A stretch of 64,000 bases of DNA from a virus (taxonomy: Duplodnaviria > Heunggongvirae > Uroviricota > Caudoviricetes): IMG/VR virus record IMGVR_UViG_2909314774_000001. The stretch is one strand, 5' to 3'. The position numbers and the translations under genes were made by a program. A model generated the notes under the pieces. That model did no database searches, was not told the origin of the DNA, and saw only the letters and a list, made by a program, of their open reading frames with translations. Position 1 is the first letter of the stretch. Each line of letters begins with the position of its first letter. Shown here one piece after another: positions 23,933-52,662 of the stretch.

Positions 23933-24113
23933 TAGATTATGACCTGCTTCCGTATGTATTTAATAAGTTACTTATTATTTGTATATACAGAAGCAGGTCT
24001 TTTAAAGACACCCACCAGAACAAGTCCCTTCCGTTTCCACTTCCAAAAACTGCCACCAGTCGCTATCATCCGCTCATTGTGATAAGTAAGTAACTACCTA
24101 CCAGGTGAGCCAC

Positions 24114-30210: not shown

Positions 30211-31636
30211 TCGTATTAAGTAAAAGGGAGAAAGAAACGCTTCATGAAATCAGTAAGTGGCCGGAGTTCCCTGAGTACTGGAAGCCTAAAACGCGAGCTA
30301 AGTTAGAGCGTTTAGGGTTGGTTGCAAACGTTTCTGAAACGTGGTGCTCGGCCAACTACCAGTTAACTGATAAAGGGAAAGTATTGCTACAGCAATTAGT
30401 AGAATCAGGAGTGTTAAAATGATTCCATACATCTCATTAGCTTTTATGGGTGGCTTCCTTATCGGCTTCGGCATCTGTCGTGATTTAATTAAGCAGGAAC
30501 TTAAAACCAAAACACTGTGCATCGGAAAGCGTGTGTATCGGGTAGTTCATGAAACAAAGGTTAGAAAATGAGCAATTTAACTTCTTGGGACTGGTGGTTG
30601 GCCACCTATTTCTTAGCGGCCGGAGTCGCATTCGCCTTTTACGTAGGTCAGTTAGTCGTAAAACTGCTGCTGATTAAATTTGCCAGTCATAAACGTATCG
30701 ATGATGGTCTGTGGCGTCTTGGCACCCTGGTGGAAACTCGCTACGGGCAACTTAAGGAGAACGAAACCATTACTATCCAAGCGAAACGGTTCACTGCCAC
30801 CATCACAAGAACACCTAGTCGTAGAGTGGCCTTGATCAAAAAAGTCACAACCGAATAAAAATACAATGATAAGTATTTACTTACTTATCTTTTATGTATA
30901 AGATGACTTTGTTTTCGTTGAGACGCGACTGTTTGAACTTAAATACAAGTGCAAACGAAGAAGTCTATCTGGCAGTAGCCTAATAAGCCAAACACCAGCG
31001 AGGTCAGTTTCCAGCCTCGTTACCGAAATGGGACACACTGAGCGAGTGTGATTGCAGAACGCAGGAGGGAACATTCATGTTCCCTCCGATGAAGTAACAG
31101 AATGGGCGGTTGGTATATTTTCAACTCCATATGACTCCCGGATTCTTAGCCACTGACCGCCCATCCTGTTACGTCATTTTGTTCAATTATGCCGTTTATA
31201 CTGGGTTAAAAAGCGGCGACGTAGCCCGGCTGGTATGGTTAGCCAGCACACAACGTTGAGGCCATTACATTTTTATCAATTCTAAGGTTCTATTCACAGA
31301 GATACCGGCGAGCGTTGATATGTAACATGTTGGGCAAACATTCAATCGGAGTAGTGGCCTCAACGTTGTGAAGACGGGATTGTTGTGTAGGTTTAACCAC
31401 TGTTGCCATTGGTGCCTGTTTTCACAACAAATGATTCCATACATCACATTGTATAAATTACAAAGTAGGTGCTGTCCTCAGAAACATCATCTACTTAAAG
31501 ATTTTGCCTTCTACTATTGAGCGAAGTCGAAAGCGTCTGGCACTAACGAAAAGTGCAAGTAGCGGTGCGTTTCCTGGCAGAAACTAAACCGTCGCGATTG
31601 GCACTGTTGAGTAATAAATACTGGCAGTGCTGAATT

Positions 31637-31711
31637 GATGGTGTAGCTCAGCGGTAGAGCAGTTGGCTGTTAACCAACTGGTCGGTGGTTCGAATCCACC
31701 CACCATCGCCA
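31637..31711 (+). tRNA. tRNA-Asn (GTT)
   Basis: Hand-folded cloverleaf: acceptor GATGGTG/CACCATC, D-arm GCTC-AGCGGTA-GAGC, anticodon arm GTTGG-CTGTTAA-CCAAC, T-arm GGTGG-TTCGAAT-CCACC, encoded CCA. Confidence 0.85.
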
Positions 31712-31716
31712 ATTTA

Positions 31717-31803
31717 GGGGAGTTAGTCCGTAGGGGCAGCGGGGTAGACTGTAAATCTACTGTCATTGCGACTCGGGTGGTTCGACTCCATCACTCCCCA
31801 CCA
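31717..31803 (+). tRNA. tRNA-Tyr (GTA)
   Basis: Acceptor GGGGAGT/ACTCCCC, anticodon arm GTAGA-CTGTAAA-TCTAC, long variable arm, T-loop TTCGACT, encoded CCA; resembles E. coli tRNA-Tyr. Confidence 0.8.
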
Positions 31804-31807
31804 AATT

Positions 31808-31883
31808 GCCGGTTTAGCTCAGTTGGTAGAGCGCCTGCCTTGTAAGCAGGATGTCAGCGGTTCGATCCCGTTAACCGGCACCA
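31808..31883 (+). tRNA. tRNA-Thr (TGT)
   Basis: Acceptor GCCGGTT/AACCGGC, D-arm GCTC-AGTTGGTA-GAGC, anticodon arm CCTGC-CTTGTAA-GCAGG, T-arm AGCGG-TTCGATC-CCGTT, encoded CCA. Confidence 0.8.
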
Positions 31884-32203
31884 ACACAACAGGTAAGAGC
31901 ATTGGGCGAATCGGCGATACTGACCACAAGCCCGTAAATCGATAGAGTCAGACCAGTGCTCTTACCGTTGTGAGGAAGTGCAGCTCTTTGAAGCAACCAG
32001 AAGATAAGCATCTGGCTTCACAACACAACGATAAGATCATTACGGTTAATCGTCGTTCATGTGCACAATGACTGGTCGAAAGGTAGTGATCTTACCGTTG
32101 TGATGAATGCACAGGCTGATGTGCCGCAACTACAGTAGTGCGCGCTTTGCGGGGCTTGCTACAACCCTGTGTCGGAGTTCAGCACCGACCATCACAATAG
32201 CTG

Positions 32204-32290
32204 GAGAGTAGGGAGCATGGTGCTCAAGCGGTCTTGAAATCCGTCCCATTGTGCAAACGATGATGGTTCGATTCCATTACTCTCCGCCAG
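32204..32290 (+). tRNA. divergent tRNA-Ser-like gene (anticodon TGA), possibly degenerate
   Basis: Acceptor GGAGAGT/ACTCTCC, T-arm GATGG-TTCGATT-CCATT and CCA end are good; anticodon loop CTTGAAA as in tRNA-Ser(UGA), but the D-arm and anticodon stem fold poorly. Confidence 0.45.
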
Positions 32291-32443
32291 ACACAGCGTT
32301 GAGCGGTTTGGCCTTTTAATCAACCAGATTAAGACTCCGCTAACATAAACCAGACCGCTCAACGCTGTGATAGACAATTACGGCAGACGTTCTTAACCAT
32401 AGCTTGCTAACATCCTAGCAACACTTTTTTCAGCGCAAAATTC

Positions 32444-32466
32444 AAAGGGGCTTCGGCCCCTTTTTT
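32444..32466. terminator. bidirectional intrinsic terminator
   Basis: AAAGGGGC-TTCG-GCCCCTTTTTT hairpin with A-tract upstream and T-tract downstream, between the tRNA cluster and the 3' end of the minus-strand 420-aa gene. Confidence 0.7.
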
Positions 32467-32481
32467 GTTGAACAGTGCAAT

Positions 32482-33744
32482 TTACTTTGCATAGTCGCCC
32501 AATTTTAATATTTCGCGCTTATATTCATTAACCATGCTACTGGATTCAGTATAAATTCGATTTAAAAGATTATCGTTATCTTTATTTTCATTTATCTTAA
32601 TTAGTGCTAATTTATATTCATAGTCATCAAATGCCACAATTAAATGGTGGCCTGGGATTATATCTTCGTCACTCTTAAAGTATATATCTTCAAGTATGTA
32701 ATCTAGTTGATTAGATTTTCTTTTCTCGATGTAATCTTCAGCCATAGCTATTACATCATTCCTGTCATTTAACCTGTTTTTTTCGGAAGGCACATCTTCG
32801 TAATGTTGCACGATTGAACAACCAATAAGGCGTGGGATGTAAACGTCAAAATGAGTAACTCTATCATTCGCGGTTTTAAGTAGTTCCTCAAAGTAGTTTC
32901 TTACATGTAAAGGCAACTTCTCAAAGTAATCATTAATTATAGGAGAACAAGGAGTTTTATAATTCATAAGAACCGACGGTACGAGCTTTGGGTGTCGAAA
33001 CATCCAGTCCCTTTTAACGTCCGATGGAACATAATAACTTTTAATGATATTATCAAAATAATTTATCATTCGAGATTTGAATATTTTGTTGAATCTAAGG
33101 TTTATGAATGTATCCAGATAAGGCATATTTGAATAAGCATCATCAAAAAATATTTCATCATTGAAAAAATCATATTTATTCAATAAACAACACAGTTTTT
33201 CCGAATTAATATGTTCACAATAATCGATTTTTAATCCAAAGATAGCAATGATCAACTTCATCTGAGGTGGGATTTTAAAAATTAATTGTGACACATACGC
33301 TCTTTTTTCCTTGAGACATTCCCCATCAATATAAAATGAACCATCCACATACTCAAATATATTAATAATATGCTTCACATACTGTATTACCTCATGCTGT
33401 CTTACCAATGGGTAATATAGTCTATGTAACTCATCGCTGTTTAAATTAATTTTGTGTTTATCGATAATTTGTTTTGCAAGAAGACATAACTCATCATGTT
33501 GATTTAATAAGGAATCAAACCATTGTTTAAATGCACTCTTTCGCATTTCGAACAATGATTCAGTTGTTAATTGAAGGGCTGAAAAAGCTGCTTTTGCACT
33601 TTTTCTCGCTTCGTAGGCATTCCATGCTGTTGCTATAAAAGCAAATGCTGTAGCCAATGTTCCAACAGTTTGACCATTTAAAACAACCCAATCCCAAAAA
33701 ATGACGGTGAGCAGTAGTATAATAATGAAAATTAAAAAAGGCAT
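32482..33744 (-). CDS. membrane-anchored protein of unknown function in low-GC cargo region (abortive-infection-like candidate)
   Basis: 420 aa; two N-terminal hydrophobic helices (FLIFIIILLLTVIFWDWVV, GTLATAFAFIATAW) then a large Asn/Tyr/Asp-rich soluble domain; opposite strand to neighbours, AT-rich, own promoter region and terminator. Confidence 0.5.
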   Translation of the reverse strand: MPFLIFIIILLLTVIFWDWVVLNGQTVGTLATAFAFIATAWNAYEARKSAKAAFSALQLTTESLFEMRKSAFKQWFDSLLNQHDELCLLAKQIIDKHKINLNSDELHRLYYPLVRQHEVIQYVKHIINIFEYVDGSFYIDGECLKEKRAYVSQLIFKIPPQMKLIIAIFGLKIDYCEHINSEKLCCLLNKYDFFNDEIFFDDAYSNMPYLDTFINLRFNKIFKSRMINYFDNIIKSYYVPSDVKRDWMFRHPKLVPSVLMNYKTPCSPIINDYFEKLPLHVRNYFEELLKTANDRVTHFDVYIPRLIGCSIVQHYEDVPSEKNRLNDRNDVIAMAEDYIEKRKSNQLDYILEDIYFKSDEDIIPGHHLIVAFDDYEYKLALIKINENKDNDNLLNRIYTESSSMVNEYKREILKLGDYAK

Positions 33745-34375: not shown

Positions 34376-35479
34376 ATGAAAAATAGCTTTGACAGAGCAC
34401 GCGCTGCGGAGAACACCTCAAAAGAGGCGATAGAGTATCTCGAAAGAGCATCTCAAATGCAGGCCGTTATGATCTCCCAGGTCAGCAATGACATGAGATT
34501 CTCGGACGCATTCATGTTATTCACTCGCTTATCTCTGCTGATAACCAGACGTCGGCCAGAGATCGCTGTTCATTGTATTTTGATACATGTTTTGCCGCAC
34601 ATTGCCGATGTAAAAGTAAGTGACATTAATAGGTTCATGGTGAACCAACTGGTCAACCCACTAATACTGGATGGCAAAATTGTTATGGGCCGCCGCGTTT
34701 TCTCTCTGATGAAGCAGTTCCTTAGCTGGTGCGCCTTCCAGGGGATGATAGACGTGTCACCGTTAAACGATATGTCACTTAACAAAGTTGCCGGTGGCGC
34801 AAAGCCCACACCTCGCGAGCGGAAGCTGACCGACGCAGAGGTATGGGTGTTCTGGAATATATGGGACTACTTCAATGTGTGTGCTGGTACAAAATGGGCG
34901 GCCAGGCTATGTCTTGTATCCGCAAGACGACCTGACGAAGTACTGCGGGCTAAAAAAAGTGAGTTCAATCTTAAGCGTGGGGTTTGGAATCAAGGCAAGA
35001 GGAACAAATCTGCCCGTGAGCATTCTCTGCCTTTAAGCTCATTAATGCGCACTTGTATTGAAGAGTTGTTCGAATATGGTAAAGACAGCCAGTGGCTCGT
35101 GCCTTCGAATAAAAAAATCGGGAAAGACCTTCCTATGTCTAAAGTGGCAATAGCCCAGGCATTACGTCGTATTCTGGAACGACCAGAACTGATGGAGCTT
35201 GAGCCATTTACACCCCGAGATTTGCGCCGTACTGCGCGTAGTTACTTCCCAGCATTAGGCATAAGCCAGGAGGTATCACGTAAAATCATGAACCACAGTC
35301 TTGAGGGGATAGATCGGGTCTACGACCGGCACGATTATATGGACGAGATGCGAGACGCCTTAGAAAGTTTCTCGACGTACATCGCATCAATCGTAGAGCA
35401 ACCGGATTTAGACGAAATTGACCACAAATTTAAGGGAGATCGTCTATCAACAGAGCTTATTCGTGTAAATTTTTCATAG
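34376..35479 (+). CDS. tyrosine site-specific recombinase
   Basis: C-terminal catalytic region with LVSARRPDEVL (box I Arg), PRDLRRTARS (box II) and IMNHSLEGIDRVYDRHDY (HxxxxxxxxY, Tyr nucleophile). N-terminal region unusual, start uncertain. Confidence 0.7.
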   Translation: MKNSFDRARAAENTSKEAIEYLERASQMQAVMISQVSNDMRFSDAFMLFTRLSLLITRRRPEIAVHCILIHVLPHIADVKVSDINRFMVNQLVNPLILDGKIVMGRRVFSLMKQFLSWCAFQGMIDVSPLNDMSLNKVAGGAKPTPRERKLTDAEVWVFWNIWDYFNVCAGTKWAARLCLVSARRPDEVLRAKKSEFNLKRGVWNQGKRNKSAREHSLPLSSLMRTCIEELFEYGKDSQWLVPSNKKIGKDLPMSKVAIAQALRRILERPELMELEPFTPRDLRRTARSYFPALGISQEVSRKIMNHSLEGIDRVYDRHDYMDEMRDALESFSTYIASIVEQPDLDEIDHKFKGDRLSTELIRVNFS

Positions 35480-44409: not shown

Positions 44410-44973
44410 TTATGCGCATTTCGCAATATCTTTGCGGCGTTTAATCAGTTTCTCCGCAATTTGCTCTATTTCGTTGAAATCTTTCGAGACGCTGTTTCGA
44501 AGCGCCAGATTCCATTTACTCAAAGTTCGGGCATTTTGGACAATTTGATCGCCCTCTTTAAGTCGTCCGTTATTCATGAGCCATTCAGCCACATCAGCCC
44601 AATCCCAGAGAGGAGACTGGCCTTTTATGCGTTGTACAGGGCAAGGGAAGTCGCCGCTTCCGCGCTTACCGTCTTTGAGCAACGCCACTGCCTGGCGAGA
44701 CAGGTCTGTCAGTTCCGCGATATCGCTTAAGCCCACAAGAGCCGAGTCGACGGATTCAACAATTGCACCGATACCGGCTGATTCAATATTGTCGACCGCA
44801 GATGCGATAGCTGCATCAAGTGATTGTGCTTCGCGGTCAAATTCTACATAGACGGAGTTTCCATATGCGCAAATTAGCGCATCGTCACAGCCGTTTTGGT
44901 ACAGCGCGTCTTCCAGTCCTTCCGTCTCATACGATACGCCTGAGAGCGTCAGAGTGAAGTTATAAAGCGCCAT
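44410..44973 (-). CDS. DNA-binding protein with AlpA/MerR-like HTH (second gene of a two-gene operon)
   Basis: 187 aa from MALYNF (start context CAAAGGAAAACTATG); central segment LSRQAVALLKDGKRGSGDFPCPVQRIKGQSPLWDWADVAEWL resembles AlpA-type excisionase/regulator HTH domains. Confidence 0.45.
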   Translation of the reverse strand: MALYNFTLTLSGVSYETEGLEDALYQNGCDDALICAYGNSVYVEFDREAQSLDAAIASAVDNIESAGIGAIVESVDSALVGLSDIAELTDLSRQAVALLKDGKRGSGDFPCPVQRIKGQSPLWDWADVAEWLMNNGRLKEGDQIVQNARTLSKWNLALRNSVSKDFNEIEQIAEKLIKRRKDIAKCA

Positions 44974-52230: not shown

Positions 52231-52662
52231 ATCCACTGTAGTCAGTAACAAAACCTTCCTACATATCTGCTAACCACTGTAGCGAGTAGACAGCCTTTCA
52301 TTCGCATCAAACAACCACTATGGTGAGTATTGGAGTGAGATGTCCAGCGGGTATCCACTATGGTGAGTAAGCCTTTGCTGTTTTCAGTGGATATCCACTC
52401 GCCACAGTGGATACGCTCAAAGATGAGGGCGACAACAACCACTATAGACAGTAAATTTTCCAAGATACCCAGTGACCACTAACCTCGCAGCCCTTGTTTC
52501 ATCAGTGTTAGTGATCACTAACATTTAATTCAGTATTTGCATTCTACTGCCTACAGTGGTTATCAACAGATAACGATACTCACTATAGTGGATAGCGAAT
52601 TACAGATATAAGTAAGGCTCACTACAGTGGATAGTGAGCCTTACTACTAACTACAGTGGTTG
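52231..52662. repeat. iteron array downstream of repA (incA-like), both orientations
   Basis: About nine copies of a ~19-bp unit with core CCACTRTAG / CTAYAGTGG (e.g. ccactgtagtcagtaac, ccactatggtgagta, cactatagtggatag, ctacagtggatag) plus palindrome GTGGATATCCAC at 52387-52398. Confidence 0.8.

Follow-up and report, generated by a model that had tools for sequence, protein, structure and literature searches.

The 64,000-nucleotide stretch of DNA analysed here, hereafter the window (IMG/VR virus record IMGVR_UViG_2909314774_000001), belongs to an Escherichia coli phage-plasmid of the SSU5/pHCM2 type and contains an array of transfer RNA (tRNA) genes interspersed with five long-stem hairpins, which we term H0 to H4. 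We describe the structure, strand, conserved box, positions and distribution of these hairpins, which, to judge from comparative sequence analysis, are one real, conserved and apparently undescribed RNA family, with a processing hypothesis that can be tested. If the family is as it appears, an unannotated RNA element is shared by phage lambda, P1 and hundreds of prophages and phage-plasmids, and it can be tested directly in lambda by standard genetics. We tentatively propose that the hairpins act as double-stranded punctuation signals, probably substrates of ribonuclease III (RNase III), which would divide polycistronic untranslated transcripts into tRNAs, read-through leaders and small RNA payloads; this is a possibility that we favour without being convinced of it.

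A cluster of related hairpins in the window

An earlier, sequence-only reading of the window had reported two long inverted repeats, at 31247-31370 and 32293-32367. Both exist, with arms of 20 nucleotides (nt) that are 95% complementary in each case (31249-31268 with 31351-31370, and 32292-32311 with 32350-32369), and they correspond to H1 and H4. That inventory was incomplete, five hairpins being present:

31088-31179, + strand: H0, TAACAG subtype, about 25 paired positions, loop of about 37 nt with a conserved TCCCGG (fold z = -6.0; orthologues)
31249-31370, + strand: H1, CAACGTTGAG subtype, stem of 20-23 base pairs (bp), loop of 76-82 nt (fold z = -6.5; covariation in orthologues)
31885-31972, + strand: H2, bulged-A subtype CACAAC-A-GGTAAGAGCATTGG (fold z = -6.0)
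32021-32105, + strand: H3, CAACGATAAG subtype, core at 32024-32102 (fold z = -4.4)
32292-32369, + strand: H4, CAGCGTTGAG subtype (fold z = -10.2)

The fold z-scores of the five thus range from -4.4 to -10.2, and none of 200 shuffles folds equally well. Folding and a search for covariation, which the sequence-only reading had proposed for its two repeats, bear out both: H1 and H4 fold significantly, and their orthologues contain compensatory pairs. The recurrent motif CTTACCGTTGTGA, which it had also picked out, is likewise present twice, at 31955-31977 and 32085-32107, in copies that are 91% identical and represent the 3' arms of H2 and H3. The clustering is far from random: the pattern CACARC-N50-80-GYTGTGA has 5 matches in the window against 0.29 expected, and hairpins with at least 16 Watson-Crick pairs number 6 in the 64 kb, 4 of them within 31089-32369, compared with 0-1 in each of 10 shuffles. 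The remaining two such hairpins of the window (23941-23999 and 52351-52414) fall outside the CACAAC family.

Orthologues of H0 are found in SSU5, the Klebsiella element pJN2-26 and altogether about 70 loci, and H0 is also kin to the hairpin upstream of trnA in P1 and D6. Immediately 5' of H0, at 31064-31087, lies a perfect 11-bp hairpin, GGAGGGAACAT TC ATGTTCCCTCC, with a 2-nt loop and no T-run after it. The loop of H4 contains a covarying inner hairpin and an invariant AAGACTCCGC.

Anatomy of the stem and selection on a + strand RNA

Across the family, the stems comprise 20-27 paired positions and close hypervariable loops of 24-82 nt. The pattern of the bulged-A subtype, to which H2 belongs, matches at least 120 IMG/VR contigs, with 77 distinct versions among the matches listed, in which the stems are almost identical and the loops unrelated. 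The proximal half of the stem is nearly invariant, with CAAC, a bulged A, GG, a U.U mismatch (27 of 35 copies) and AAG, such that 5'-CAAC-A-GG-U-AAG pairs with 5'-CUU-U-CC-GUUG; the other subtypes have variants of this box. Higher in the stem a U.G wobble recurs in 24 of the 35 copies, and the distal 8 bp covary freely. That the conserved box retains its irregularities, namely the bulged A and the U.U, argues for sequence-specific recognition of the stem base.

Several lines of evidence indicate that the pairing itself is maintained. In 35 distinct bulged-A copies, 94.1% of cells pair versus 87.5% in shuffles (0/500 reaching the observed value), 8 pairs are altered in both partners, and covariation scores 0.240, whereas sliding the partners yields no more than 0.066. 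The orthologue alignments of H1 and H4 keep 19-20 pairs, with compensatory pairs at 4 positions in H1 (n=23; 19 pairs kept) and 2 in H4. Furthermore, under a strand-symmetric definition, G.U pairs outnumber A.C juxtapositions in the stems by 63 to 24, with the caveat that the set used for this count was originally gathered with G.U allowed; this excess points to selection on a + strand RNA rather than on a DNA palindrome. Consistently, the orientation of the hairpins is that of transcription in every context examined. The loops differ in constraint: that of H1 has a diversity of 0.008, about that of the tRNA-Asn gene of the array, compared with 0.034 in the adjacent spacer.

Distribution in P1, lambda and prophages

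In P1 and D6, family hairpins occur upstream of trnA and downstream of trnT, in the leader of the C1-controlled ban operon. The open reading frames (ORFs) plp and upl of P1 (NC_005856, 69472-70041; L002:1575-2144) lie on the strand opposite to the ban operon, over the hairpins and a tRNA-like module, and plp overlaps trnT. The window has no equivalent ORF, and both are therefore probably spurious.

The IMG/VR contigs listed as matching the bulged-A pattern are mostly of prophage size and have one copy each, between the gene for the Q antiterminator and the holin gene, that is, in the untranslated late leader. A copy is also present in lambda itself, at 44787-44862; it has the same stem as H2, begins 6 nt past the T-run of tR' that ends 6S RNA and carries no annotation. 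The corresponding lambda-type segment is found in 679 of 5426 RefSeq E. coli genomes, again with nothing annotated under it. One-genome-per-species data yielded about 21 genuine copies, spread over Enterobacterales, after 21 further matches had been set aside as lambda contamination and 9 as chance. The contaminated entries (among L254-L302) are representatives of 21 species of Pseudomonas, Shewanella, Oceanobacillus, Bradyrhizobium, Enterococcus and others with byte-identical lambda sequence, often on contigs of about 48.4 kb or at about 1x coverage, which points to lambda spike-in.

In lambda the 3' arm of the first hairpin is reused directly after it, in that GTTGTGCTG...CAGCACAAC closes a second element at 44855-44940 (L251:1056-1141), the interior of which is the loop sequence of the D6 hairpin after tRNA-Ser. 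As CACAAC and GTTGTG thus alternate as shared linkers, two pairing registers are possible. At another locus (L170) the terminator of isrJ, a small RNA of the Salmonella type (2710-2786, - strand), has a family hairpin directly behind it, just as the lambda copy follows 6S/tR'.

The hairpins do not seem to have been described previously. Comparison of the hairpins of the window, P1 and 22 other loci with the 4227 models of Rfam 15 gave only chance-level matches to microRNA precursors; literature searches covering hairpins of phage tRNA clusters, the ban operon of P1 and the late leader of lambda turned up no description of them, a P1vir transcriptome preprint leaves this region out, and a literal full-text search retrieved no paper with the conserved hairpin sequences.

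The tRNA genes and the modularity of the array

The hairpins of the window are interspersed with four tRNA genes, all of which are found in the RefSeq annotation, made by the Prokaryotic Genome Annotation Pipeline (PGAP), of near-identical plasmids:

31637-31711, + strand: tRNA-Asn(GTT) (ARAGORN; Rfam, 75.5 bits; PGAP)
31717-31803, + strand: tRNA-Tyr(GTA) (ARAGORN; Rfam, 39.7 bits; PGAP)
31808-31883, + strand: tRNA-Thr(TGT), CCA encoded (ARAGORN; Rfam, 73.1 bits; PGAP)
32203-32289, + strand: tRNA-Ser(TGA), atypical, 87 nt, CCA encoded (ARAGORN; PGAP; compensatory changes)

The sequence-only reading had seen three well-formed tRNAs, for Asn, Tyr and Thr, and a divergent fourth for Ser, and had named tRNA predictors as the arbiter. 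ARAGORN, Rfam and PGAP agree on the first three, the only ones to reach the gathering score of the Rfam tRNA model, and both ARAGORN and PGAP call the fourth, which ARAGORN places at 32203-32289. The latter is peculiar in its short D-loop, long variable arm and a U.U closing the anticodon stem; its top Rfam model is that of tRNA-Sec (41.1 bits against a threshold of 47), with no gathering-level match to RF00005, and the annotators of D6 noted that tRNAscan-SE did not call the amino acid of the corresponding tRNA. Its acceptor stem changes from GGAGAGTA/TACTCTCC to GGAGGATA/TATCCTCC and GGAAGGTA/TACCTTCC in relatives, and the D arm and the variable arm covary too (10 distinct orthologues, judged by inspection). 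Given these compensatory changes in three arms, the gene is, by all indications, a real tRNA, atypical yet under selection. The base just 3' of its anticodon loop (32236-32246) varies in close relatives, which have AAAACC, AAATCC, AAAGCC or AAAATC. In one relative, a "tRNA-His(gtg)" (L083:7618-7692) is identical to the SSU5-type tRNA-Asn at 74 of 75 positions, the single difference turning the anticodon from GTT to GTG; we interpret it as an anticodon-switched phage tRNA.

Within the window, H2 begins 1 nt past the CCA of tRNA-Thr and H4 begins 2 nt past that of tRNA-Ser. The generality of this arrangement can be gauged from 80 SSU5-like loci that were fetched through the ligase gene and show hairpin orthologues. 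Phage-plasmids whose ligase genes are 99-100% identical differ in tRNA and hairpin content: the array variants include those with H2 and H3, H2 only, H3 only or another hairpin, those with or without tRNA-Tyr, and those with tRNA-Asn only. A hairpin typically follows each tRNA run, at -6 to +1 nt from the CCA end. Successive hairpins have at their 5' bases the direct repeat ACACAAC, in which one deletion junction falls. When counted over all the fetched loci, which are a biased sample, a hairpin starts at most 3 nt from the 3' end in 56 of 129 distinct tRNA-run ends (43%), and a tRNA lies within 600 nt in only 155 of 386 distinct hairpin contexts. The hairpin family is thus not strictly a tRNA accessory.

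A single pair of H1 orthologues (L053:7060-7136 and L051:7060-7136) differs in that the loop of one is the exact reverse complement of the other, at 98.8% identity, between identical 20-bp arms. We read this difference as an inversion of the intervening DNA; as the only inverted loop among about 70 loci, it led us to reject a regular inversion switch.

Structured modules adjoining the hairpins

Two further structured elements occupy the space between tRNA-Thr and tRNA-Ser:

31974-32020, + strand: small conserved stem-loop, GAAGC-AA-CCAGA...TCTGG-CTTC at 31990-32019, inside GTTGTG...CACAAC (comparison with relatives)
32097-32199, + strand: module 2, a tRNA-like frame round a variable insert, overlapping the 3' arm of H3 (pairing and compensatory changes)

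The first is 89-100% identical to its counterparts in P1-like phages. The second is a representative of a wider design, found directly 3' of many family hairpins, that consists of an acceptor-like helix (GUGGUG/CACCAC), a D-like hairpin, an insert of 40-110 nt and a T-like hairpin; at one locus (L190:8547-8881) the order is hairpin, tRNA-like module, two tRNAs. In the 30 distinct versions, pairing of the frame reaches 99.1%, and each of three helices has one compensatory position. The complementarity between D-loop and T-loop is invariant and hence offers no test by covariation. In the window the corresponding helices are GUGAUG/CAUCAC, GCAC..GUGC and GUCGG..CCGAC, and P1 has an identical copy (L002:1920-2022). 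The acceptor-like strand of module 2 overlaps the 3' arm of the preceding hairpin. The segment 32108-32176 has no significant structure alone (z = +1.35) and makes sense only as the insert of module 2, and Rfam gave no match for the module of the window at either gathering or permissive thresholds.

Probable co-transcription of the array

The region 30900-32500 is 99.9% identical to RefSeq plasmids of about 110 kb, related to the phages CMS-2020a, Cyrano and SSU5, and is partly common to P1, P7 and D6. A search of 30400-32700 found no sigma-70-like promoter, and a single element marks the end of the array:

32444-32470, + strand: strong intrinsic terminator

Given the lack of an internal promoter and the one terminator at the end, the + strand replication genes upstream, which encode a DnaB-like helicase and a DNA ligase, probably share a transcript with the 1.6-kb untranslated array. 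In P1, too, such modules sit in an operon leader, that of the C1-controlled ban operon.

A proposed role in punctuation and its rivals

The sequence-only reading had offered three options for the hairpins, of which processing signals and small stable RNAs are the best supported, and decayed tRNA genes can be rejected. The processing route that we propose would involve the following steps: 1) a single long + strand untranslated transcript would extend from the replication genes across the 1.6-kb array of tRNAs and structured modules as far as the terminator (32444-32470). 2) Each hairpin in it would serve as a cassette, with a stem of about 20 bp, a near-invariant proximal box, a distal half required merely to pair and a loop of almost any sequence. 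3) A host endonuclease specific for double strands, most likely RNase III, would cut the stem. 4) The cut would separate the next module from the tRNA that abuts the 5' side of the hairpin, where there is no single-stranded room for RNase E; read-through leaders, lambda 6S/tR' for instance, would be cut away likewise, and the loop would come free as a small clamped RNA. The loops may be payloads. 5) RNase P would have the tRNAs as substrates, along with the tRNA-like frames starting within the 3' arm of a hairpin.

Beyond the evidence given above on stem, strand, box, transcription and the conserved H1 loop, two features of the family favour this proposal. The stems, of 20-27 bp or about two helical turns of double-stranded RNA, have the dimensions of RNase III substrates. 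The hairpins also lie between functional RNAs, 0-3 nt after tRNAs, 6 nt after lambda tR' and overlapping the starts of tRNA-like modules; positions flush with tRNA 3' ends, after read-through terminators and before putative RNase P substrates are those where an endonucleolytic cut is needed. Among known systems the closest parallels are the RNase III sites of the T7 early region, such as R1.1, and the stems bracketing 16S and 23S rRNA. They too are long double-stranded stems between functional RNAs of one transcript, with paralogous copies per genome, and by analogy with the rRNA stems the hairpins bracket RNA that cutting of the stem would release. The present family stands apart from these stems in the invariant sequence of its proximal box and in its loops of 24-82 nt, and its cleavage is a prediction; unlike the T7 sites, which are not known to be shared across unrelated phages, it occurs in lambda, P1 and SSU5-type elements.

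Several considerations weigh against punctuation by cleavage. We infer the expression and cleavage of the hairpins, the enzyme and any function of the loops from sequence. RNase III needs no conserved sequence, so the invariant box may have another reader. As 60% of the distinct copies have no tRNA within 600 nt, tRNA 3' maturation cannot be the general role. Loops that are long, structured and sometimes conserved are unneeded for punctuation alone, and the loop of H0 drifts like spacer. Finally, the late regions of the K-12 cryptic prophages DLP12 and Qin contain no copies, which makes the published K-12 RNase III datasets uninformative.

Of the rival explanations, the one that survives best, although we consider it unlikely, is that the hairpins are uncleaved structural insulators, which would let neighbours fold independently, block 3' exonucleases and the 5'-end-dependent scanning of RNase E, and prevent loading of Rho. 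The very stable stems, the abutting modules with linkers of 0-6 nt and the long untranslated leaders that host such arrays (1.6 kb long in the window, some 1.5 kb for the ban operon of P1 and some 400 nt for the late leader of lambda) would all suit insulation. It would leave unexplained, however, both the invariant box with its bulged A and U.U and the release of a tRNA CCA end from a hairpin that begins 0-3 nt downstream.

We are more doubtful that the hairpins are scaffolded regulatory RNAs, in which the stem would be a scaffold for expression or processing and the loop, or the exposed arms, would pair with or sponge host RNAs, possibly GcvB. The hypervariable loops (77 distinct versions among the 120 matches listed) would befit exchangeable regulators, as would the tRNA-like conservation of the H1 loop and the short invariant motifs kept in the loops of H4 and H0. 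A precedent exists in the same genomic slot: the anti-GcvB small RNA AgvB is encoded in the moron slot downstream of PR' and binds the GcvB seed through CACAACA, the consensus of targets of GcvB R1 and a motif also present at the 5' base of the hairpins (Tree et al., PMC4104026). In the window, the 3' arm of H3 with its flank, CUUACCGUUGUGAUG, resembles GcvB nt 57-72, with 14 of the 16 positions in agreement (0/300 shuffles); R1 also has perfect 10-nt complements, at 31882 and 32020. Yet the match is significant for two subtypes only, the commonest lambdoid subtype reaching 12 of 16 (87/300 shuffles), and the CACAAC/GUUGUG motifs are buried in the stem. Moreover, the hairpins have no terminator or Hfq-type 3' end and match no Rfam small RNA family, and the H0 loop is unconstrained. 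AgvB and AsxR share with the hairpins the slot downstream of PR' and a division into conserved and variable parts; they differ in being primary transcripts of 51-60 nt, each with a promoter and a terminator, that run convergently to the late transcript, whereas the hairpins are co-directional with it, lack a terminator and match neither Rfam family.

A second precedent concerns module 2 rather than the hairpins. The STnc100 (RF02076)/PasD small RNAs occur in the same neighbourhood as the hairpins, with the Q antiterminator, holin, TerB/tciA and tRNAs (doi 10.64898/2026.05.13.724894). STnc100-like matches directly after family hairpins share the design of the frame, with UG-GUGAAU..., a 5' hairpin, a variable middle, a CCGG-stem hairpin and CACC-CA. 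At P1-type loci a variant of the frame starting at the hairpin end scores 33.4-42.4 bits to STnc100 (threshold 47); module 2 of the window has no STnc100 match even at E = 10, lacks a terminator and runs directly into tRNA-Ser.

It is improbable that the hairpins are DNA-level elements, either recombination linkers or non-autonomous elements, akin to miniature inverted-repeat transposable elements (MITEs) or integron attC sites, that shuffle tRNA and small RNA cassettes, with the RNA structure incidental. The variable arrays of plasmids with near-identical ligases, the deletion junction in an ACACAAC repeat, the modules common to unrelated P1-like and SSU5-like elements, the one exactly inverted loop and the alternation of CACAAC and GTTGTG along the array would all fit such elements. 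Nevertheless, the asymmetry of G.U over A.C and the conserved U.G wobble are selected on one strand only, and the hairpins are co-directional with transcription in all contexts examined. Target-site duplications, shared internal sequence and attC hallmarks are lacking, as is any recombinase common to lambda, P1 and SSU5-type elements, and there is but one inversion among about 70 loci. A MITE was rejected on its own account: the inverted repeats are there, but the loops are unrelated and no flanking duplications are present. Integron attC sites resemble the hairpins in being imperfect inverted repeats with a 5' AAC, a 3' GTT and a variable centre, deployed in cassette arrays. Unlike attC, the hairpins have no RYYYAAC/GTTRRRY cores, unpaired central spacer or characteristic extrahelical bases; their stems are near-perfect save for the one bulged A and one U.U, the deletion junction lies at the 5' bases and not at G/TT, and selection, per the G.U asymmetry, is on RNA. 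No integron integrase is common to the host elements, and the P1 and lambda copies are far from any gene of the tyrosine recombinase type. With only AAC and GTT shared, attC was rejected on anatomy.

It is more improbable still that the bulged-A 3' arm is a masked boxA, a NusB/NusE site for processive antitermination through the array as in rRNA operons. Of 11 positions, 10 are the same in the arm CAGTGCTCTTT and in the boxA region of the rrnB leader, CACTGCTCTTT, and the boxA core of lambda nutR recurs in H2 as GCTCTTAC, 8 of 8; but the motif belongs to this one subtype, H1, H3 and H4 being without it, the comparison is post hoc, and the motif is sequestered in a stable helix, when boxA acts single-stranded. 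We treat the GcvB-seed and boxA resemblances as leads only. Decayed tRNA genes, suggested by T-arm-like motifs in two loops only (P1 AGGGTTCGAATCCCT and the lambdoid L133 GAGGGTTCGAGTCCC), are barely credible, for the conserved part is a long stem absent from any tRNA, and in 19 seed hairpins ARAGORN (-ps80 and -mt) made only 2 spurious opposite-strand calls and the Rfam tRNA model none.

Should the family be what we take it for, the element, with its sequence-specific recognition box, would account for the release of tRNAs and small RNAs from long untranslated transcripts of phages, for the exchange of tRNA and small RNA cassettes among temperate phages that are unrelated, and for the tolerance of so many inserted RNAs and morons in the slot downstream of PR', those next to Shiga toxin genes included. 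A broader and unlikely extension is that temperate enteric phages share a plug-and-play system of small RNA expression, in which the two frames, hairpin and tRNA-like, would be read by host processing enzymes, and the exchangeable payloads, once set free, would exert effects on the host, such as titration or mimicry of GcvB. If true, the lambda late leader, the P1 ban leader and the tRNA arrays of phage-plasmids would be the sources of the payloads, and the system would be a bacterial counterpart of clustered primary microRNAs or tRNA-linked small RNA arrays, unannotated in phage lambda.

Other features of the window

Two observations lie outside the array. A tyrosine recombinase gene occupies 34376-35479, 2 kb downstream of it. 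Farther along, on the - strand, 43840-44258 matches the cspA thermoregulator over its full length (Rfam RF01766, 183 bits), that is, a cold-shock protein leader on a phage-plasmid.

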